A stretch of DNA of 64,000 nt, taken from Gemmatimonadales bacterium. GTDB lineage: Bacteria > Gemmatimonadota > Gemmatimonadetes > Gemmatimonadales > GWC2-71-9. Position numbers and translations under genes: made by a program. Of the stretch, positions 10,153 to 57,201 are shown in pieces (positions within the stretch are counted from its first letter, which is position 1; each line of letters starts with the position of its first letter). The DNA lies in NCBI GenBank assembly GCA_035538515.1, contig DATLKF010000032.1, positions 36,073 through 100,072 on the forward strand. The letters are read 5' to 3'. The notes beneath the pieces are model-generated. The model searched no databases and was not told the DNA's origin. It saw only the letters and a program-made list of their open reading frames with translations.

Positions 10153-10171
10153 GCGGCCCCGGCGGGATCCC

Positions 10172-10239
10172 GGGGTTCGGGGTTCGGGTCTCGGGGCTTG
10201 GGATGCACCCCCAGCCCCGAGCCCCGAGCCCCGAGCCCC
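10172..10239. repeat. Palindromic heptad-array element, family C (GGGG[C/T]TC units)
   Basis: Left arm 10172-10202 is ggggttc ggggttc gggtctc ggggctt ggg. The loop is atgca. Right arm 10208-10239 is cccccag ccccgag ccccgag ccccgag cccc. It sits in the 91-bp spacer between the PTPS-like stop and the fdhD ATG. Confidence 0.85.
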
Positions 10240-10243
10240 TCGA

Positions 10244-10663
10244 TCACCGTTCACCGAAGTATTCCGAATAGATAGTCGGCCCCTCTTGGATGCGCACCGC
10301 GTGCAGCGTCACGCCGTTGGGCAACCGCGGCGCAACCCGTTCCCACACCCACACTGCTAGCGCCTCGCCCGTCGCCAGCCGACCCCCGTCTCTGAACTCG
10401 GGGAGCGCCCGATTGATGCTTTGCCCGTCCAGCCGCCGTGTGATTTCCTCCGCCAAGACGTCGTCCAACAGCCCAAGCCGCATCACCCCACCTGCCTCCG
10501 CCACGAGGGGTCCCTTCACGGTGACCCGGCACTGATAGCGATGCCCGTGCTCCGCGGCGGCACGGCCGAACTCGCGCGCGTTCTGCGCGTCCGACCAATC
10601 CGCGCGCCGGATGCGGTGCGTCGCGCTAAACTCAACGATACGCGTAAGATAGCTGATCGGCAT
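10244..10663 (-). CDS. 6-pyruvoyl-tetrahydropterin synthase / QueD-family protein
   Basis: Three Zn-ligand His residues are present (FSATHRI..., ...EHGHRY) and the protein is 139 aa. The Cys of the QueD CxxxHGH motif is not present (AAAEHGH). Confidence 0.75.
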   Translation of the reverse strand: MPISYLTRIVEFSATHRIRRADWSDAQNAREFGRAAAEHGHRYQCRVTVKGPLVAEAGGVMRLGLLDDVLAEEITRRLDGQSINRALPEFRDGGRLATGEALAVWVWERVAPRLPNGVTLHAVRIQEGPTIYSEYFGER

Positions 10664-12367: not shown

Positions 12368-13089
12368 GCCACGCCGATCGTGGCCCAGCGGTGCGAGGTC
12401 CACTCGGTGATCGCCGCGGTGGGCGCCAGCACGCTGCTTCCCCCGCCTGACGGCGGCACCTTGTAAGAGAGCGGGTAGTGCAGCCGCCACAGCACCAGCC
12501 GGAAATCGCCGCGGATCGAGAGGCGCCGCGCGGGATACCAGCGCACGCCGGCGTTAGGCGAAAGGGTGAACTTGGTGCCGAACGTGTAGCCGCTCGAATC
12601 CTGGGCCAACGTGTTCGCGAACGCGACGCCGAGCGCGCCGCCGATGTAAGGCGCGAAGCCGCGCCACGTCTTGCGGCCCGTCAACACGAGCTGCAGGCCG
12701 GCGTCGGCGAGCACCACCCCGTTGTCGTACGGACCGCTGGTGCGCGCGGAATCCTTCTTGGGATCCACGACGAAGCTTTGGGTCCGCCCGTACGCGAGGC
12801 CGAGTGACGCGCCGATGGCCCCGAATTGGGCGTCGTAGCGGATCCCCGCGGTCGCACCATCGGCGAGGCCGACGCCCAGGCTCCCCCGGCCGCCGCTCAG
12901 GTATCCGAACGCCAGCACGCCGACGGCTCCGCGCCGGATATCGCGATAGGGGGAGTGGCCGGGATCGTAGCCCACTTGAGCGCCGGACGGTTGGACGGTG
13001 GGACCGACGGACAGTAGCACCGTTGCACCGAGTGCGATCCAGCCACGGGTCCACCGTCCGACCGTCCGACCGTCCGACCGTCCGTCCAT
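12355..13089 (-). CDS. Small outer-membrane beta-barrel protein (hypothetical)
   Basis: The predicted signal peptide is MDGRSDGRTVGRWTRGWIALGATVLLSVGPTVQPSGA/QV. It has an alternating amphipathic strand pattern and ends ...ATIGVAWTF. The ATG overlaps the gpmI stop (ATGA). Confidence 0.6.
   Translation of the reverse strand: MDGRSDGRTVGRWTRGWIALGATVLLSVGPTVQPSGAQVGYDPGHSPYRDIRRGAVGVLAFGYLSGGRGSLGVGLADGATAGIRYDAQFGAIGASLGLAYGRTQSFVVDPKKDSARTSGPYDNGVVLADAGLQLVLTGRKTWRGFAPYIGGALGVAFANTLAQDSSGYTFGTKFTLSPNAGVRWYPARRLSIRGDFRLVLWRLHYPLSYKVPPSGGGSSVLAPTAAITEWTSHRWATIGVAWTF
12983..13087. repeat. Palindromic octad-array element, family B ([A/G]GTCGGAC units)
   Basis: Arm 12983-13015 is ccggacggt tggacggt gggaccga cggacagt. 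Arm 13054-13087 is (ccgtccga)x3 ccgtccgtcc, its imperfect reverse complement. A 38-nt spacer separates them. The element lies inside the first ~35 codons of the OMP gene. Confidence 0.8.
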
Positions 13090-14657
13090 CAGTCCGTCTC
13101 CCTGAGATCTCGCCCCGTCATCTCCGGCGGCGGCTCCACACCGAGCAATCGGAGCACCGTGGGCCCCACGTCGCACAGCGCGCCGCCGTGGCGCAGCGGG
13201 CCGCGCACGTCGTCCCCAACGAGGCAGAACGGTACCGGATTGGTGGTGTGGGCCGTGTGAGGGCCGTCCGTCGTGGGATCGATCATCAGCTCGCAATTAC
13301 CGTGGTCCGCCGTGACGAGCAGGGTGGCGCCGCGCCGCTCGGCGCTGCGTAAGACGCGCTCCAGGCAGCGATCCACCGTTTCCACCGCTTGGATGGCGGC
13401 GCGTAGTACCCCGGAGTGGCCGACCATGTCCCCGTTGGCGTAGTTGCACAGGATGAAGTCGTGGTGCCCCGCCTCGATCGCGCGGCACAGCACGTCGGTC
13501 ACGCCCGGGGCGCTCATTTCCGGCATGAGATCGTAGGTCGCGACCTTTTGAGACGGCACCAGCTGCCGCTCCTCGCCCGGGTACGGCGTCTCGACCCCAC
13601 CGTTGAAGAAGTAGGTGACGTGGGCGTATTTCTCCGTCTCGGCGGTCCGGAACATCGTCTTGCCCCGCTCCGACAGCACCTGCGCGACGATCTGCGAGAG
13701 CACCATCGGGCCGAACGCCATCGGGAATGGGAAGGTCGCGTCGTACTGTGTCATCGTCACGAGATCGACGGCCGGCCGAGCCCCGGTGTCGAAACCGTCG
13801 AATCCTTCGAGCGCGAGCGCGCGCACGATCTGGCGCATGCGGTCGGCTCGGAAGTTGACGCAGAAGATACCGTCTCCATCCCGGATGCGCGGCGTGCCGG
13901 TGATCACGCGCGGCTTCACGAACTCGTCCGTCTCGCCGGCCTCGTACGCGCGACGGACGGCGGTAATCGGGTTCGGCGCGGGCTCGCCCACGCCGTGTAC
14001 CATCGCGTCGTACGCGATCTTGGTGCGCTCCCAGCGCTTGTCGCGGTCCATGGCATAGTAGCGACCGACGACGGTGGAAATGCATATGGGGGCTCGGGGA
14101 TCGGGGCTCGGGGCTCGGGCCCCGCCACCCCCGATCCCCTCTACCAGCTCCTGCATGAACGCCAGCCCCGACTGCGGCGCCGTGTCGCGCCCGTCGAGCC
14201 ACGCGTGGATCGCGACCGGCAGGTCGTGCTCGCGGCCGAGCTCGACGGCGGCCACGAGGTGCTGATCGAGCGCGTGCACGCCGCCCGTGCCGATCAGCCC
14301 GCACAGGTGGAGCGTGCCGCCGCGCCGCTTCACGTCGGCGCACAACTGGACTAAGGGCGGAAGGCGGAAGAACTCGCCCGACTGGATTGCCTGCGAGATG
14401 CGCACCATGTCCTGCGGCACGACGCGACCCGCGCCCAGGTTCAGGTGTCCCACCTCGCTGTTGCCGATCTGTCCTTGGGGGAGTCCCACGGCGAGACCCG
14501 ACGCGTCGAGCAGTGTGCGCGGTGCTTTGGCCCACAGACGATGCCAGGTAGGTGTCGCGCCGAGCTCGACGGCGTTGCCCTCCCGGCCGGGGCGGAAGCC
14601 CCAGCCGTCGAGCACGATCAGGACGACCGGGGTGCGCGGCCCATTCTGCTTTGCCAT
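13089..14657 (-). CDS. gpmI: 2,3-bisphosphoglycerate-independent phosphoglycerate mutase
   Basis: It carries VVLIVLDGWG, GNSEVGHLNLGAGR, GRYYAMDRDKRWER and TADHGN. The protein is 522 aa. Confidence 0.92.
   Translation of the reverse strand: MAKQNGPRTPVVLIVLDGWGFRPGREGNAVELGATPTWHRLWAKAPRTLLDASGLAVGLPQGQIGNSEVGHLNLGAGRVVPQDMVRISQAIQSGEFFRLPPLVQLCADVKRRGGTLHLCGLIGTGGVHALDQHLVAAVELGREHDLPVAIHAWLDGRDTAPQSGLAFMQELVEGIGGGGARAPSPDPRAPICISTVVGRYYAMDRDKRWERTKIAYDAMVHGVGEPAPNPITAVRRAYEAGETDEFVKPRVITGTPRIRDGDGIFCVNFRADRMRQIVRALALEGFDGFDTGARPAVDLVTMTQYDATFPFPMAFGPMVLSQIVAQVLSERGKTMFRTAETEKYAHVTYFFNGGVETPYPGEERQLVPSQKVATYDLMPEMSAPGVTDVLCRAIEAGHHDFILCNYANGDMVGHSGVLRAAIQAVETVDRCLERVLRSAERRGATLLVTADHGNCELMIDPTTDGPHTAHTTNPVPFCLVGDDVRGPLRHGGALCDVGPTVLRLLGVEPPPEMTGRDLRETD
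14088..14139. repeat. Family C heptad tract inside gpmI
   Basis: gggggctc ggggatc ggggctc ggggctc ggg occupies 14088-14119. It is followed by ccccgatcccc (14129-14139), which is complementary to ggggatcgggg (14096-14106). It is read in frame as GGGGARAPSPDPRAP. Confidence 0.8.
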
Positions 14658-14667
14658 ATTGGAGGGG

Positions 14668-15749
14668 ATGCAATCTAGCCGGGGCTTCCGCGCCCTTCCA
14701 GTTGTTCTGTGGCTCGCGCTTCCCCTGCCGCTCGCCGCCCAAGCGCGCTATCGAGTCACCACCGACGGCGCCTGGTTCTACCAGGAAGCCGGTGGCAAGC
14801 GCCTGGCACGGCTAGCGCGCGGGGCAGTGCTGATGGGTGGCGACACACAAGGCGACTGGCAGGGCGTGACGCTCGAGGGGTGGATCTTCGCGACGTCCGT
14901 CGTCCCGACGACGCGCTCCGGGTACGATCTGATCGTGACGCGTGCGCCCGAGGAAAACCTCCGGTCCGCGCCGGCGGGCGCGCTCATCGGAAAGCTGCCC
15001 GAGGGATTTCTCTTGAACCGCGTGGCCGAGGGGAGCTCGGACCGCTGGGTGCACGTGACTCGCGCGGGGTGGATCGAGAAGACCGACGCGGAAGCGGTGG
15101 TACAGGTCGCGAGCTCGCGCAGCGCCGCGCCGGCGGATTCGGATACGACGCGTGCGCGTCACTCGACGCCGCGCGCCGCCTCCCAGCCTCCGCCTCTCGT
15201 TCCCGGCGACAGTGCGCCGCCGACCAGTGTCTCGGCGCCGGTAGACCCCGCCAGGGTCGAGTCGGCGCGCCGCACGGTACTGTATCGCGCGCCCGAAGGA
15301 CAGCCAGCGGGGACGCTGGCGCCCTCCGCGCCGTTGCGCGTGCTTGGGAAGTCCGGCGACTGGACCCGCGTGGCGCTCGAAGGGTGGGTGAAGAGCGCGG
15401 ATCTGGAGATCGCGCCGCCCGGCGTGCTTGTGGGGATCACGGCCGCCGAGTTGCGCACCGACCCGCAGCGCTACGCGGGACAGGTGCTGCGCTGGACCCT
15501 GCAGTTCATCTCGGCCCAGAAGGCGGACGAGCTGCGGCCCGAGATACCGAATGGCGCTAGCTATTTTCTGGCGCGCGGCCCGCTTCCCGAGCGTGGCTTC
15601 GTGTACGTCGTGGTGCCGGACGCGAAGCGCGCGCAGCTCGAGGCGCTGGCGCCCCTCGCGACGGTTCAGGTCACGGCGCGCGTCCGCACCGGGCGCACCC
15701 GCTTCCTCGGGAACCCGGTGTTGGATCTGATCAGCCTGGAGACCCTGCC

Positions 15750-31928: not shown

Positions 31929-31929
31929 C

Positions 31930-32015
31930 AACGCGGAACGCGGAAGTCGGAATGCGGAACAGGCGGCTCGAGGTCCGCTCGAATGTTCCGCGTTCGGCAT
32001 TCCGCGTTCCGACTT
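31930..32015. repeat. Palindromic heptad-array element, family A copy 1
   Basis: The left arm is cgcggaa cgcggaa gtcggaa tgcggaa ca (31932-31961). The spacer is 22 nt. The right arm is tg ttccgcg ttcggca ttccgcg ttccgac tt (31984-32015). About 24/30 arm positions are complementary by eye. It starts 1 nt after the MATE TGA and ends at the next gene start. Confidence 0.85.
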
Positions 32016-32019
32016 GACC

Positions 32020-35850: not shown

Positions 35851-36763
35851 CCGACAGTCGGAAGGTCGGACAGTCGGACGAGAAGGCCAAACGGTCGCGG
35901 GCGAAAGCTTGCTTGTCCGCTATGTCAACTTCGTCAAGCTGCCGCACACAGTATTCGCGTTACCGTTCGCATTGCTCGGTGTGATCGTTGCTTCGCGTGA
36001 GGCGGCGGTGACGTGGCGGATGCTCGGGCTCGTCGTTCTCGCGTTCACGTGTGCCCGGTTCGTTGCGCTCGGGTTCAACCGCATCGCGGATCGCGAGCTC
36101 GACGCGCGGAACCCGCGCACCAGCGGCCGTGAGCTCCCCAGCGGGCGCCTCACCCTGACGCAGGCCTGGGTCGCGGTGGCCGCGGCGGCGGCGCTGTTTC
36201 TGGTGAGCGCCTGGGCGCTGAACCCGCTGTGCTTCGCCCTCGCCCCCATCGCGCTGCTCTTCGTCGCGGCATACAGCTACACCAAGCGGTTCACGTCCTG
36301 GTCGCATCTGTGGCTCGGCCTCGCGGACGGCATCGCGACGCCGGCAGGATATCTCGCGGTGACCGGCCGCTGGGGCGATCCCTGGTGGCTGCTTCCTGTG
36401 GGCGCGCTCGCCGTCACGTTCTGGGTTGGTGGCTTCGACGTGTTCTACGCGCTCCCCGACGAGACCTTCGACCGTGCCGAGCGGCTCGCGTCGCTCGTGG
36501 TGCGGCTGGGGCAGGCGCGGGCCATCCGGGTCGCGAAGCTGCTGCACGGGGTCGCGCTGGTCGCGCTTGTCGTATTCGGGATCGGGGCGGGTTTGGGTGT
36601 GGCCTATTACGCCGGCGTGGCGGCCGGCGCCGCGCTCATCATCTGGGAGCACCAGCTGGTCCGGCCGGGAGACCTGCGCCGGCTGAATGCGGCGTTCTTC
36701 ACCGCGAACGGAATCGTGAGCGTGGTCGTGTTCCTGGGAGCGTTGGTGGATAGAGTGATATGA
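35840..36763 (+). CDS. ubiA: UbiA-family aromatic prenyltransferase (4-hydroxybenzoate / dihydroxynaphthoate type)
   Basis: It carries VKLPHTVFALPFALLG, the Asp-rich motif NRIADRELD and 8-9 TM helices. TTG 35840 gives the longest ORF; TTG 35909 is an alternative that would leave the family B tract noncoding. Confidence 0.85.
   Translation: MSSDRQSEGRTVGREGQTVAGESLLVRYVNFVKLPHTVFALPFALLGVIVASREAAVTWRMLGLVVLAFTCARFVALGFNRIADRELDARNPRTSGRELPSGRLTLTQAWVAVAAAAALFLVSAWALNPLCFALAPIALLFVAAYSYTKRFTSWSHLWLGLADGIATPAGYLAVTGRWGDPWWLLPVGALAVTFWVGGFDVFYALPDETFDRAERLASLVVRLGQARAIRVAKLLHGVALVALVVFGIGAGLGVAYYAGVAAGAALIIWEHQLVRPGDLRRLNAAFFTANGIVSVVVFLGALVDRVI
35851..35880. repeat. Family B octad tract (single arm)
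   Basis: ccgac agtcggaa ggtcggac agtcggac g lies directly after the ubiD TGA (35848-35850). No convincing inverted partner was seen nearby. Confidence 0.7.
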
Positions 36764-36851
36764 AACGCGGAACGCGGAAGTCGGAACGCGGAGCAGACGA
36801 GCGAGTGCCGGTGGCGCCTGTTCCGCGTTCCCCGTTCCGCGTTCCGCGTTC
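36763..36851. repeat. Palindromic heptad-array element, family A copy 2
   Basis: The left arm is cgcggaa cgcggaa gtcggaa cgcggag ca (36766-36795). The spacer is 22 nt and unrelated to that of copy 1. The right arm is tg ttccgcg ttccccg ttccgcg ttccgcg ttc (36819-36851). About 26/30 positions are complementary. It abuts the ubiA TGA. Confidence 0.85.
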
Positions 36852-46315: not shown

Positions 46316-47434
46316 ATGCCACAACCGACCGCCGTCAAGTGTCTGGTGGTAGACGACGAGCCCCGGCTTCGCCGGGTGCTCGTGCGGCTGCTCGAGGGTG
46401 AGGGATTCACCTGCTCGGAGGCAGGGTCCGGCACCGAGGCGCTCGAGATACTGCAGCACGACCCCGTGCCGCTCGTCATCTCCGATCTGCGAATGCCGCA
46501 GATGGATGGCGTCACCTTGCTGCGTGAGATCCTGGCGCGCTGGCCGGACACCGCGGTGATCGTCGTGACCGCCGTGGCGGAGGTGGAGAGCGCGGTCGCG
46601 TGCCTGCAGCAGGGTGCGCTCGACTACGTCGCCAAGCCCTTCCATCTGGATGAAGTGCGCGCCCGCGTGATGCAGGCGCTCGACAAGCGCCGCCTCAAGT
46701 TGGAAGTCGAGGACTACAAGCACAATCTGGAGCTGCGCGTCCAGCAGCAGGCGCGGCGCATCGAAGAGCTGTCGCTCGAGCGGCTCCAGGCGCTGGTGTT
46801 CTTCCTGGAGGAGAAGGATCCCTACACCCGCGGCCACTCGGTGCGGGTCGCCGACTACTCGGCGCGCATCGGCCGCATGATGGGTCTGCCGCAGACGACG
46901 ATGGACTTGATCGCCCTTGGCGCCGAGCTCCATGACATCGGGAAGATCGGCGTGAGCGAAGCCGTGCTCCATAAGGAGGGCAAGCTCAGCGACGGCGAGT
47001 ACCGGCACATCATGGAGCACCCCGTGATCGGCGCGCGCATCCTGGCGCCGCTGATGCGCGACGTGCCCGCGGCCCTCGCTATCGTGCGGTCCCACCACGA
47101 GCGCCTCGACGGCAAGGGGTTCCCCGACGGTCTCAGGGGAGACGCGATCCCGCTCGAGGTGCGGGTCGTCACCGTCGCCGACTCGTTCGATGCCATGACC
47201 AGTGTCCGCCCTTACCGGCCGGCGCTGTCGGTGCCCAAGGCGCTGCAGGAGCTCGAAGAGGGCAAGGGGAGCCAGTTCCACGCCCCGGCCGTCGACGCCT
47301 TCATGGCCGCTTTTCCCGATCGCACGGCGCTCCCCGTCTCCACACCGGAAATCAAACCGCTGCGTCTACCCGTCCCTGTTGCCGAGGCGCTCCAGAGCGG
47401 CGGCCGCGGGGGCCGCACCTCCACACCGAATTAA
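46316..47434 (+). CDS. Response regulator with HD-GYP domain (putative c-di-GMP phosphodiesterase)
   Basis: The receiver domain reads KCLVVDDEP...LVISDLRMPQMDG. The HD-GYP domain reads GHSVRVADY, LHDIGKIG and HHERLDGKGFPDGL. Confidence 0.85.
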   Translation: MPQPTAVKCLVVDDEPRLRRVLVRLLEGEGFTCSEAGSGTEALEILQHDPVPLVISDLRMPQMDGVTLLREILARWPDTAVIVVTAVAEVESAVACLQQGALDYVAKPFHLDEVRARVMQALDKRRLKLEVEDYKHNLELRVQQQARRIEELSLERLQALVFFLEEKDPYTRGHSVRVADYSARIGRMMGLPQTTMDLIALGAELHDIGKIGVSEAVLHKEGKLSDGEYRHIMEHPVIGARILAPLMRDVPAALAIVRSHHERLDGKGFPDGLRGDAIPLEVRVVTVADSFDAMTSVRPYRPALSVPKALQELEEGKGSQFHAPAVDAFMAAFPDRTALPVSTPEIKPLRLPVPVAEALQSGGRGGRTSTPN

Positions 47435-47444
47435 ATTGGTGCGC

Positions 47445-48865
47445 ATGACCGGCACCTTAATGGTCGGTGTCTCGGGGATCCGCGGCATCGTAGGCAAGGA
47501 CCTGACCGATGAAATCGTCGCCCGCTACGCCCGGGCGTTCGGCCGGTGGGCCAAGGGAAGGGCGGGGGGGGCGCGCAATCCGCTCGTGGTGGTCGGCCGC
47601 GACGCGCGGGAATCCGGAGCGGCGTTCGAGCGGGCCGTGACCGACGCGTTGCGGTCCGTGCGGTGCGACGTCGTGCAGCTAGGCGTCGTCCCCACCCCCA
47701 CCGTGCAGCTAGCGGTCGAGCATCACCACGCAGGCGGCGGGATCGCCATCACGGCCAGCCACAACCCCATCGAGTGGAACGCCCTGAAATTCATCGGGCC
47801 GGACGGAATTTTCCTCGACGGCAAGGACGGAAGGCGGGTGCTGGAGCTGGTGGGAGAGGACGGGGGAGGACGGGGAAGGACGGGGGAGGCTAGGACCGAT
47901 GACCAGGCGATCGCGCGGCACCTCGCGGCCGTGCTGGAGCTTCCGGCGGTGGACGTCGCGGGGGTCCGGGCCCGCAAGCTCACCGTGGCGCTCGACACGG
48001 TGCGGGGAGCGGGAGGCCCGGTGATGCGGGAGCTCCTGGAGCGGCTTGGCTGCCGCGTGGAGGGCATCAACCTCGAGACCGATGGCCAGTTTCCCCGGCC
48101 CCCGGAGCCGGTGCCCGAGAACCTGGGTGACCTGGCCGCCCTCGTGCAGCGGACCGGTGCGGTGTTCGGCATCGCGGTCGATCCGGACGTGGATCGCCTG
48201 GCGATCGTGGACGACCGGGGGATGCCGATTGGGGAGGACTACACGCTTGCCTTCGCCGTTCGAGCGGTCTTCGGTGTCGGAGCGTCGGACAGTCGGACGG
48301 TCGGACTGCAAAGCGGTGGACTGTCCGACCGTCCGACCGACCGAAGAACCGTCGTCTGCAACCTCTCGACCAGCCTCGTCGTCGAAGACGCCGCCCGTGA
48401 GTTCGGCGCCGAGGTCGTCCGGACGCCCGTCGGCGAAGTGCACGTCGCCCGCAAGATCCTCGCACTCGGGGCGCCGATCGGGGGGGAGGGGAACGGGGGC
48501 GTCATGTATCCCGCGCTGCACGTCGGTCGGGATGCCCCGGTCGCGGCGGCGTTGCTGCTGACGCTGCTCGCCCGGTCGGGAACGCGAGTGAGCGAGCTCG
48601 TAGCCGCGGCCCCGCGCTATGTGATCGTCAAAGCAAAGTTGGAACGGGGAACGCGGAACGCGGAACGGGGAATGGAAGAGATCTATGCCGCTTTGCGTCG
48701 GCGGTTCCCCGAGGCGAGCGTCGACACGCAGGACGGGTTGCGGCTCGCCTGGTCGGACCGCTGGCTGCACGTGCGGCCGTCCAACACCGAGCCGATCATC
48801 CGGCTGATCGCCGAGGCGCCGATCCGCGCCGATGCGGAACGACTGATCGAGGAGGGGCGCCGCCC

Positions 48866-48881
<16 letters not shown>
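47445..48881 (+). CDS. Alpha-D-phosphohexomutase (phosphoglucosamine mutase / phosphomannomutase family)
   Basis: It has the phosphoserine loop GIAITASHNP, the Mg site FGIAVDPDVDR and the sugar-binding motif GGEGNGG. Its 3' end overlaps the glmS start, which suggests a GlmM-type role. It contains three repeat tracts. Confidence 0.85.
47853..47889. repeat. Tandem decamer tract AGGACGGGG[G/A] x3.3 inside the mutase gene
   Basis: ggagaggacgggggaggacggggaaggacgggggagg is read as GEDGGGRGRTGEA. It fits a G>=3 N1-7 x4 quadruplex pattern on the sense strand. Confidence 0.8.
48271..48344. repeat. Family B palindromic element inside the mutase gene
   Basis: A perfect 15-bp stem pairs gtcggacggtcggac (48292-48306) with gtccgaccgtccgac (48323-48337), and the loop is 16 nt. 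The flanking units are gcgtcggac agtcggac / ...cgaccga. It is read as ASDSRTVGLQSGGLSDRPTDRRT. Confidence 0.85.
48638..48675. repeat. Family A heptad tract (single arm) inside the mutase gene
   Basis: gttggaa cggggaa cgcggaa cgcggaa cggggaa tgg is read as LERGTRNAERGM. Confidence 0.8.
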
Positions 48882-50707
<1,826 letters not shown>

Positions 50708-50827
50708 GAACGCGGAAGTCGGAACGCGGAATGCGGAACGGCCGGTCGGCCGTCGATCGGCAACGAAAGCCCACGGGCCAGAAACGCGAAGGCTCTGTTC
50801 CGCGTTCCGACTTGCGCGTTCCGCGTT
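50708..50827. repeat. Palindromic heptad-array element, family A copy 3
   Basis: The left arm is cgcggaa gtcggaa cgcggaa tgcggaa cgg (50711-50741). The spacer is 53 nt. The right arm is tg ttccgcg ttccgac ttgcgcg ttccgcg tt (50796-50827). It abuts the glmS TGA and is followed by an SD gggagggg and the dtd GTG. Confidence 0.85.
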
Positions 50828-50845
50828 AGGGAGGGGCGGGGCGGC

Positions 50846-51295
50846 GTGAGGGTGGTTCTGCAGCGCGTGTCCCGTGCGGCGGTGCGGGTGAACGGACGAG
50901 TGACGGGATCGATTGGGGTCGGGTTGCTCGTCCTCGCCGGCTTCGCCGCGTCCGACACCGAGGAGACGCTCACCTGGATGGCCGACAAGATCATCGGTGT
51001 GCGGCTGTTCGCGGACGCCGAGGGCAAGATGAACCTGGCGCTCGCCGATGTGCGTGGAGGGCTGCTGGTCGTCTCTCAGTTCACATTGTATGGCGACGTC
51101 AAGAAAGGACGGCGCCCGAGCTTCATCGACGCCGCGGTGCCCGAGGTGGCCATCCCGCTCTATGATCGCTTCGTCGCACTGCTCCGGGAGCGGGGCGCCG
51201 GGAGCGGGACCGCGGTGGCGACGGGGGAGTTTGGCGCCATGATGGAAGTGGAGCTGGTGAACGACGGACCCGTCACCTTGATCTTGGAGCGGTGA
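50846..51295 (+). CDS. dtd: D-aminoacyl-tRNA deacylase
   Basis: It carries MRVVLQRV, SQFTLYGDVKKGRRPSF and the NDGPVT motif. The protein is 149 aa. Confidence 0.9.
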   Translation: MRVVLQRVSRAAVRVNGRVTGSIGVGLLVLAGFAASDTEETLTWMADKIIGVRLFADAEGKMNLALADVRGGLLVVSQFTLYGDVKKGRRPSFIDAAVPEVAIPLYDRFVALLRERGAGSGTAVATGEFGAMMEVELVNDGPVTLILER

Positions 51296-57086: not shown

Positions 57087-57090
57087 GGCA

Positions 57091-57201
57091 GGTTGGGGAG
57101 GCGAGATACGAGATGCGAGATGCGGGATGGGTGGTAAGGGGCCGCAATCACGCTCTCCTATCCCGGCTCCAACCTCCCCTAACCTCCCCAACCTCCCTAC
57201 C
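57091..57201. repeat. Composite palindromic repeat element, family F
   Basis: The outer perfect 11-bp stem pairs ggttggggagg (57091-57101) with cctccccaacc (57183-57193). Inside are four heptads cgagata cgagatg cgagatg cgggatg (57102-57129) and the C-rich decamers aacctcccct aacctcccc aacctccct (57171-57198). It fills the spacer before the gspE-REC gene. Confidence 0.8.

Follow-up and report, generated by a model that had tools for sequence, protein, structure and literature searches.

How can a gene for a conserved and presumably essential enzyme carry three different repetitive tracts in its reading frame and remain in use? This question is raised by the glmM locus of a Gemmatimonadales bacterium (GCA_035538515.1, contig DATLKF010000032.1), of which a stretch of 64 kb, hereafter the window, was the sequence base of the analysis. 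Rickettsia offers the best-known cases of palindromic repeats lying in frame in housekeeping proteins, and the origin of such repeats is still an open matter. An earlier note on the window had marked three short-unit repeat tracts inside its gene for phosphoglucosamine mutase (GlmM), and all three were reported by Tandem Repeats Finder (TRF). Tracts 1 and 3 span 47852-47889 and 48641-48672; tract 2 spans 48264-48352 as a whole hairpin, inside which TRF marks the two arms. The translations quoted for them proved correct. The reading preferred here, to which we assign a probability of roughly 75%, is that a functional GlmM has had three of its four indel-tolerant surface loops colonised by short-unit repeats of the Gemmatimonadales, that these are read as flexible loops, and that they are passengers spread by copying and slippage.

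Three repeat tracts in the reading frame of glmM

The gene, the tracts, and their parts are as follows.

47445 to 48881, + strand: glmM coding sequence, 478 residues, archaeal-type phosphoglucosamine mutase, frame uninterrupted
47852 to 47889, + strand: tract 1, 3.8 copies of the decamer GGGGGAGGAC, peptide G137 to A149 (GEDGGGRGRTGEA); TRF period 10, 89% matches
48264 to 48352, + strand: tract 2, the whole family B hairpin, about residues 277 to 301; from fold, insertion, and polymorphism
48276 to 48306, + strand: 5' arm of tract 2, 3.9 copies of GTCGGACN; TRF period 8 and pattern search
48307 to 48322, + strand: 16-nt loop of tract 2 (TGCAAAGCGGTGGACT), unconserved among family copies; from copy comparison
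48323 to 48344, + strand: 3' arm of tract 2, units of GTCCGACN; TRF (period 8 call at 48319 to 48344)
48641 to 48672, + strand: tract 3, 4.6 copies of the heptad GGAACGC, peptide E400 to G409 (ERGTRNAERG); TRF period 7, 92% matches
Candidate tract-spanning peptides, by predicted translation: SDSRTVGLQSGGLSDRPTDR, GEDGGGRGRTGE, and ERGTRNAERG

At the centre of tract 2 is a perfect 15-bp stem, formed by GTCGGACGGTCGGAC at 48292-48306 and its exact reverse complement at 48323-48337, with 16 nt between them, exactly as the earlier note described it. The RNA of the tract folds with -58 kcal/mol (z-score -5.65; 0 of 200 shuffles equally stable), and its DNA with a z-score of -4.63. Loop lengths were judged against 143 full-length family representatives, clustered at 50% identity and aligned with MAFFT. 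Between the anchors A271 and N306 (site 2) the window protein has 36 residues against a family mode of 16, an excess of 20 (19 relative to the solved Pyrococcus structure, 1wqa), and just one other sequence among the representatives gets to 34 residues. This is the segment, EDYTLA to NLSTS, that was given in the earlier note as about 20 residues longer than usual. Close relatives have at the same place either a form 14 residues shorter or a different repeat, so that the site is polymorphic for presence and absence. Together these comparisons identify tract 2, as had been suggested, as a true in-frame insertion of about 20 residues. The ancestral state of the site reads VLDGR...PTVVV in protein and GACGG...CCGACCGTC in DNA, and the ancestral 3' flank, CCGACCGTC, is one family B unit, that is, a microhomology. 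In the window lineage GTG CTC GGC has become GTC TTC GGT (48264-48275; Leu276 to Phe), and on the 3' side (48338-48352) the segment has changed to end in DRRT, ...GACCGAAGAACC; these flanking changes lengthen the stem by about 10 bp into the adjacent codons.

The other two sites differ in kind. At site 3 (anchors K396-Y414) there are 19 residues against a mode of 15, an excess of 4, which amounts to about 1 relative to 1wqa and to 5 relative to the ancestral Gemmatimonadales PRGPxL. Tract 3 is thus a small insertion of 4-5 residues. It is a single arm with no complementary partner nearby, gives matches on the + strand only, and is not palindromic. At site 1 (anchors L134-D153) the window has 20 residues, the family mode is 23, and the difference from 1wqa is -3; tract 1 is a replacement of the ancestral loop PPRAGWDGIG, 3 residues shorter than it, and not an insertion. 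The prospect raised in the earlier note, that repeat-free orthologues might have loops of the same length and hence no insertion, was therefore borne out at tract 1 but not at tracts 2 and 3. The ancestral W/Y...hG motif of site 1 is retained in more distant orthologues and is gone from the window clade, where the aromatic motif was lost prior to the appearance of decamer arrays. Tract 1 is not palindromic, and outside the copies in glmM the window holds only one weak, chance-level match to its decamer. With matches limited to glmM, the decamer was rejected as a dispersed family, and tract 1 is taken to be a local array.

The gene itself is intact. Its match to TIGR03990, the archaeal-type GlmM equivalog, scores 459.5 bits against a curated cutoff of 439, and all four PGM_PMM domains (I-IV) are above the Pfam cutoffs, with the match to domain III beginning only at profile position 23. 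By these profiles the product is predicted to be a complete archaeal-type GlmM. The catalytic Ser loop TASHNP, the metal loop DxDxDR, the sugar loop GEGNG, and the phosphate loop RxSxTEP are all present, and residues S105, H106, D246, D248, D250, R251, G347, E348, G349, R444, T448, and E449 are invariant in an alignment of 126 sequences, in agreement with the earlier claim that the catalytic motifs are kept. The protein is 100% identical to one annotated in a Gemmatimonadales metagenome-assembled genome (MAG), and more than 100 relatives at 75-81% identity are found in NCBI, JGI, and ENA assemblies. Comparison DNA came from seven relatives (L081-L087; L-numbers are those of the relatives' contigs), which are about 77% identical in DNA and 55-60% identical at third positions. 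With the three tract sites masked, the ratio of nonsynonymous to synonymous divergence (dN/dS) between the window gene and these relatives is 0.14-0.17 at dS 0.7-0.9. The gene is under purifying selection and probably functional, as the earlier note had supposed from its coupling to glmS, with which it shares a 16-nt overlap.

The tracts lie where the fold tolerates length variation. Among 80 Gemmatimonadales GlmM orthologues from species-level genomes, internal length variation is limited to four loops (residues 37-44, 137-143, 276-300, and 401-409), and the window tracts fill three of these, all of them between secondary-structure elements. An AlphaFold2 model based on the 126-sequence alignment has a mean predicted local distance difference test (pLDDT) score of 93.6 and a template modelling score of 0.90 to 1wqa. 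In this model tract 1 is a loop linking helix 126-136 to strand 149-151 (pLDDT 86-92), tract 2 lies between helix 267-276 and strand 302-306 (pLDDT about 50, and below 50 at 287-289), and tract 3 lies between strand 393-400 and helix 411-420 (pLDDT about 69), in keeping with the loop positions that had been expected. The low score of the tract 2 insert, in a model of which the rest has pLDDT above 90, is what a disordered loop would give, and the site is compatible with the fold.

Dispersed repeat families and turnover at the GlmM loops

The units of tracts 2 and 3 recur well beyond glmM. Octamer double units (15 nt) match the window 19 times against 2.3 expected, and heptad double units 22 times against 2.2 expected; in neither case did any of 100 shuffles reach the count, and the excess over shuffled sequence is about ninefold. 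The strongest inverted repeats of the window are all hairpins whose arms are tandem 7-8-nt units, and about eight such hairpins, with units of 7-9 nt, occur in the 64 kb (389-497, 10166-10245, 12984-13090, 31929-32016, 35851-35879, 36764-36851, 50708-50827, and 57087-57197). The extragenic elements beginning at 389, 31929, 35851, 36764, 50708, and 57087 start at or within a few bases of an upstream stop codon, and the hairpin at 10166-10245 stands upstream of the likely fdhD start. Those most useful for comparison, together with glmS, are listed below (no strand is assigned to the hairpins).

48866 to 50707, + strand: glmS, its ATG at 48866 opening 16 nt before the glmM stop codon ends (the genes overlap)
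50708 to 50827: extragenic family A heptad hairpin from the first base after the glmS stop codon, at an orthologous position in relatives
12984 to 13090: family B octamer hairpin outside genes, built of the tract 2 unit; pattern search
35851 to 35879: single family B arm straight after a stop codon; pattern search
31929 to 32016: extragenic family A hairpin straight after a stop codon; pattern search
36764 to 36851: extragenic family A hairpin straight after a stop codon; pattern search

Family B, with the unit GTCGGACN, thus has three loci in the window (12984-13090, 35851-35879, and glmM). In metagenomes, a two-arm pattern search found it on at least 120 contigs, and its arms are conserved between copies and its loops are not. 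Among the 120 matches listed, 101 are not spanned by a coding-like open reading frame (ORF), 8 are at contig ends, and 11 (about 10%) lie in frame within coding-like ORFs. Seven of these 11 ORFs were scanned against Pfam and comprise two Tgt, three MeaB, one PfkB-family kinase, and one GlmM, the last with the element in the same loop; of the remainder, two are MeaB-like by sequence and two (L177:1737-3113 and L195:1175-3220) are without family assignment. About half of the evaluable extragenic copies among the matches listed fall within -6 to +19 nt of a stop codon. Family A, with the unit GGAACGC, has an internal variant unit, AAGTCGG, that is common to copies across loci and genomes and is also found in a family A copy within glmM of L084; the shared variant suggests copying and not independent origin. 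Additionally, the window holds a second in-frame repeat hairpin, in the gene for cofactor-independent phosphoglycerate mutase (gpmI; ORF 13092-14747). This hairpin of GGGGCTC units (14088-14140, - strand) is read in frame as GIGGGGARAPSPDPRAP, and at its loop the protein is 9 residues longer than PDB 5vpu. An Rfam scan of the whole window matched no family, and no terminator- or promoter-like sites were found in 47000-51200, and the hairpins are without a T-tract; they are thus not canonical intrinsic terminators. A literature search for described repeats of Gemmatimonadetes found nothing relevant.

Comparison of relatives indicates that the loops have been filled repeatedly and by different repeats. 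At site 2, between the same flanking codons, family B hairpins are present in the window, L081, and L082. The hairpin in L085 is family B-like, with G(C/G)CGGAC units, and may share a common origin with family B. In L084 a family A hairpin with the AAGTCGG signature occupies the site, in L087 a hairpin of GACGGAAN units, in L083 a direct (GGGAAAC) x 4 array, which is the short form, and in L086 a small insert, a (GGGATGC) array broken by a 23-nt motif. Other strong hairpins (z-scores of -3 to -12) are seen at this site in the distant L002, L007, L010, L036, L060, L047, and L065, and L005 and L017 retain only the 3' arm of the hairpin that is whole in their relative L007. The spacer after glmS behaves similarly: family A occurs there in three relatives, its GAATGCG variant in two, an unrelated decamer hairpin in L081, and nothing in L082. 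In the two relatives with the variant (L087:5792-5908 and L086:6423-6566), GAACGCG has changed to GAATGCG in every unit of both arms. The tract 3 heptad is patchy on the tree, occurring in three clades, with sister taxa such as L005 and L017 differing. Further, different 7-10-nt arrays or hairpins occupy the length-variable GlmM loops of other species. The fourth loop (residues 37-44) carries heptad or similar arrays in L001, L010, L014, L031, L033, and L035, those of L001, L010, and L033 being heptads, e.g., (CGGGAAA) x 4 in L001. The window's own version of that loop (47553-47576) is a G-rich KGRAGGA and decamer-like. A separate observation concerns the 23-nt motif, CTNAAGGACTCCCTGNCGGTCGC, translated LKDSLTVA, which is conserved and has been inserted, always in frame, into one or the other of two GlmM loops depending on the species (L006:3442-3461, L086:3649-3668, L003 at site 1, and L035 at site 2; proteins P0038, P0043, and P0048) and is absent from the 64-kb window.

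Passengers, transposons, or selected structures

How would such tracts arise and persist? Under the preferred reading, tract 2 would be a dispersed family B copy of the kind that normally stands just after stop codons, and would have landed in frame at the loop that joins the first helix of domain III to its first strand. Tract 3 would be a heptad array that extends a short loop by 4-5 residues, and tract 1 a decamer array that expanded locally and overwrote an ancestral loop without gain in length. Translation would turn each into a flexible loop rich in Gly, Arg, Ser, Asp, and Pro. Copies may be acquired from other genomic copies at microhomologies, or may grow from unit-like seeds; arrays would lengthen by local slippage, template switching between arms could maintain the complementarity of hairpins, and a dedicated transposase would not be needed. 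By inspection, the 7-, 8-, and 10-nt units contain no stop codon in the frames worked through, so that an array of any in-frame length can be read. Moreover, a 7- or 8-nt array gives one periodic peptide in all three frames, and thus the sole requirement is that its total length be divisible by three. Repeats would then persist only in loops that tolerate added residues, as tolerated and probably not adaptive passengers.

Several observations weigh against this account. The changes that lengthen the tract 2 stem in the window lineage could reflect selection on structure, and five orthologues retain the stem, 5 of its 33 pairs having changed in a compensatory way (a covariation term of +1.04, from these five family B orthologues only, too small a set to decide). 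No terminal inverted repeats separate from the arms were found on comparing filled and empty forms of site 2, and no target-site duplication was seen in the same comparison, in which the boundaries are blurred by the unit-like ancestral flank. The most pointed of the observations concern tract 3. Among the tract of the window (48642-48671) and its orthologues in L081-L087, 224 of the 250 codon pairs that encode one residue (90%) agree at the third base, whereas the figure for the remainder of the gene is 61%. The tract employs two rare codons throughout, GAA, which makes up 22% of Glu codons, and GGA, 14% of those for Gly. In the 1.4 Mb of DNA fetched, moreover, all single-arm GGAACGC arrays are the same glmM tract, with no mobile solo arm elsewhere; the two remaining single-arm matches come from L084, where a hairpin arm has degenerated, and from L199, whose array is of the variant GCATTCC. 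The description of tract 3 in the earlier note as a family A arm accordingly goes as far as the shared unit, the link being one of unit identity only, and tract 3 may, but need not, derive from a family A element.

The tract 3 DNA is nearly invariant among eight relatives, and its rare GAA and GGA codons are also kept in more distant species, except in the drifted L029. Neither protein-level selection alone nor a neutral passenger would be expected to leave synonymous sites so conserved. The array may have been homogenised internally, it may have been converted by family A copies, or the nucleic acid may have a function. Since every position of the heptad unit falls, in one unit or another, on the first or second base of a codon, homogenisation combined with selection on amino acids would freeze all bases. 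A tentative and rather speculative extension would gather these observations under an undescribed class of self-propagating Gemmatimonadales "tandem-unit palindromes", with arms of 7-10-nt units, free loops, and concerted evolution, which would be copied by a templated, transposase-independent process after stop codons and into tolerant loops, and of which some coding copies would be fixed at the nucleotide level by homogenisation or by a function in RNA or DNA.

[quoted passage not shown] The high copy number, wide dispersal, and near-identical arms of family B would suit such an origin, as would its in-frame copies in at least four Pfam-identified protein families and two further ORFs, the common internal signature unit of family A copies, and a placement after stop codons like that of REPs (PMC3733652). 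On the other side, loops vary in length and sequence between copies, both arms of the hairpin at an orthologous site have changed their units together, as in the replacement of GAACGCG by GAATGCG, and hairpin and single-arm forms interconvert at one site (L007 versus L005 and L017). The REP tag GTAG is absent, and the missing target-site duplication and separate terminal repeats at site 2 count here as well.

An origin purely in place, by slippage of pre-existing loop motifs followed by template switching to form a second arm, would make the likeness to families A and B convergent, and is unlikely. The ancestral site 2 loop, GACGG...CCGACCGTC, does approximate one family B unit on each side, every variable loop has lineage-specific units, the decamer is without another copy in the window, and the single arm of tract 3 occurs only in glmM. 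Further, heptanucleotides are the commonest long simple-sequence repeats in bacteria (PMC4679880), and template switching is known to homogenise the arms of inverted repeats (PMC7202029, PMC8604942). Set against these points, one 15-nt double unit is found at three window loci and on at least 120 contigs, where the proteins that contain it belong to at least four families identified by Pfam, the L084 glmM copy of family A bears the AAGTCGG signature, and the presence of unrelated families in one loop of sister lineages would be hard to get by stepwise local change.

It is distinctly unlikely that one or more tracts are kept for a function, be it an mRNA hairpin that tunes translation or stability of glmM-glmS, a heptad array to which a protein binds, or a loop for some new interaction. 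The conserved synonymous sites and rare codons of tract 3 are the best evidence for such a role, alongside the retention of the tract 2 stem with some compensatory change and its lengthening in the window lineage, and the persistence of tracts 1 and 3 across lineages at dS 0.7-0.9. Yet tract 2 is absent from, or swapped for unrelated repeats in, close relatives with the same operon, the low model confidence of the insert is consistent with disorder, and there is neither an Rfam match nor a terminator- or promoter-like site. The patchiness of the tract 3 heptad, which differs even between sister taxa, also argues against a conserved role. Long-range base pairing between tract 3 and the hairpin after glmS, through the 3' arm of the latter, was considered and rejected, given that L081 and L082 conserve tract 3 and lack a family A hairpin after glmS. 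Finally, an assembly or binning artefact, or chance low-complexity sequence, is highly improbable even for a MAG with 69% G+C, in which G-rich low-complexity peptides are common, because dozens of independent assemblies, drawn from three archives (NCBI, JGI, and ENA), have identical or closely related tracts at the same position and in the same frame, the shuffle controls exclude chance, and the reading frame is intact across all three tracts.

Relation to known repeat elements

The closest known parallel to tract 2 is with the Rickettsia palindromic elements (RPEs), which, by the summary in PMC10969869 of Ogata et al. (2000 and 2002), are about 100-150 bp long and have a family-specific conserved sequence and peptide. 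In both cases dispersed palindromic repeats stand in frame in unrelated housekeeping genes and are read as an extra peptide, the insert sites are compatible with the fold, and orthologues without the insert exist (PMC10969869). Tract 2 combines a dispersed family, a hairpin, an in-frame insertion, presence in several unrelated genes, and a fold-compatible site. The analogy drawn in the earlier note holds since family B is dispersed, mostly extragenic, and also in frame in unrelated proteins, and it supports treating tract 2 as an RPE-like protein-coding palindromic element by its behaviour. Membership in a dispersed family is not found for tract 1. Several differences set the systems apart. 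The glmM element, at about 70-90 nt, is shorter than an RPE, the tandem 7-8-nt units of its arms are read as a periodic peptide, and its loops are unconserved. The present host is a free-living, high-G+C soil bacterium, whereas that of RPEs has a reduced genome and is intracellular, and here one protein loop holds different families in sister lineages.

REPs, including intragenic GTAG- and CGTC-tagged ones, resemble the present elements as short G+C-rich stem-loops that lie mainly downstream of coding regions, between co-directional or convergent genes, with occasional copies within genes for known proteins (PMC3733652). Their stems measure 5-13 bp and their loops 2-20 nt, a tetranucleotide is conserved at the terminus, and REP-associated tyrosine transposases (RAYTs) often accompany them (PMC3733652); the present stems are instead 15-35 bp of tandem units with loops of 15-57 nt. 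The elements do not fit the tag and short stem that mark REPs or REPINs, as GTAG is absent and CGTC occurs inside units and not as a terminal tag. Nor do they have the structure of MITEs: the arms are the whole element, the loops are unconserved, and filled and empty sites show no duplication.

The arrays do qualify as simple-sequence repeats (units of 5-11 nt in at least three head-to-tail copies, above chance). Long repeats of this kind, e.g., heptanucleotide arrays, are discussed in PMC4679880, and the likeness lies in head-to-tail 7-10-nt units, abundant in some high-G+C genomes and ascribed to polymerase slippage. Known arrays are, however, usually extragenic or phase-variable inside genes, whereas here a presumably essential housekeeping gene has fixed, in frame, arrays whose unit length is not divisible by three, and arrays are often paired with an inverted array as a hairpin. 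Quasipalindrome-associated template switching, which perfects imperfect inverted repeats (PMC7202029) and can produce clustered, apparently compensatory changes in coding sequences without selection (PMC8604942; PMC7202029), is a mutational mechanism and not an element family. Its action here is suggested by the homogeneity of the arms and by a stem that has grown into the codons beside it.

Translation of palindromic repeat DNA inside housekeeping proteins is, as a kind of event, already known. What is new is the architecture of the element, the phylum, the occurrence of three tracts in one presumably essential gene, the repeated independent filling of one loop, and the synonymous conservation of tract 3. 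Sister free-living lineages in which different repeat families have independently filled one GlmM loop are in effect nature's own replicates of an experiment, with a bearing on the protein sites where foreign peptide is tolerated, on the spread of hairpins without obvious transposon ends, and on whether repeat DNA is raw material for new loops. It should be noted that such tracts also pose a risk to annotation, for they inflate protein length, disrupt alignments to domain models, and mimic assembly errors in MAGs.

Around glmM, the gene order of response regulator, glmM, glmS, dtd, and maf is kept in relatives. In L085 (4243-4649) and L086 (4233-4639), about 400 nt separate glmM from glmS and contain a small reverse-strand ORF without a Pfam match; thus, the overlap of the two genes is not universal in the clade.

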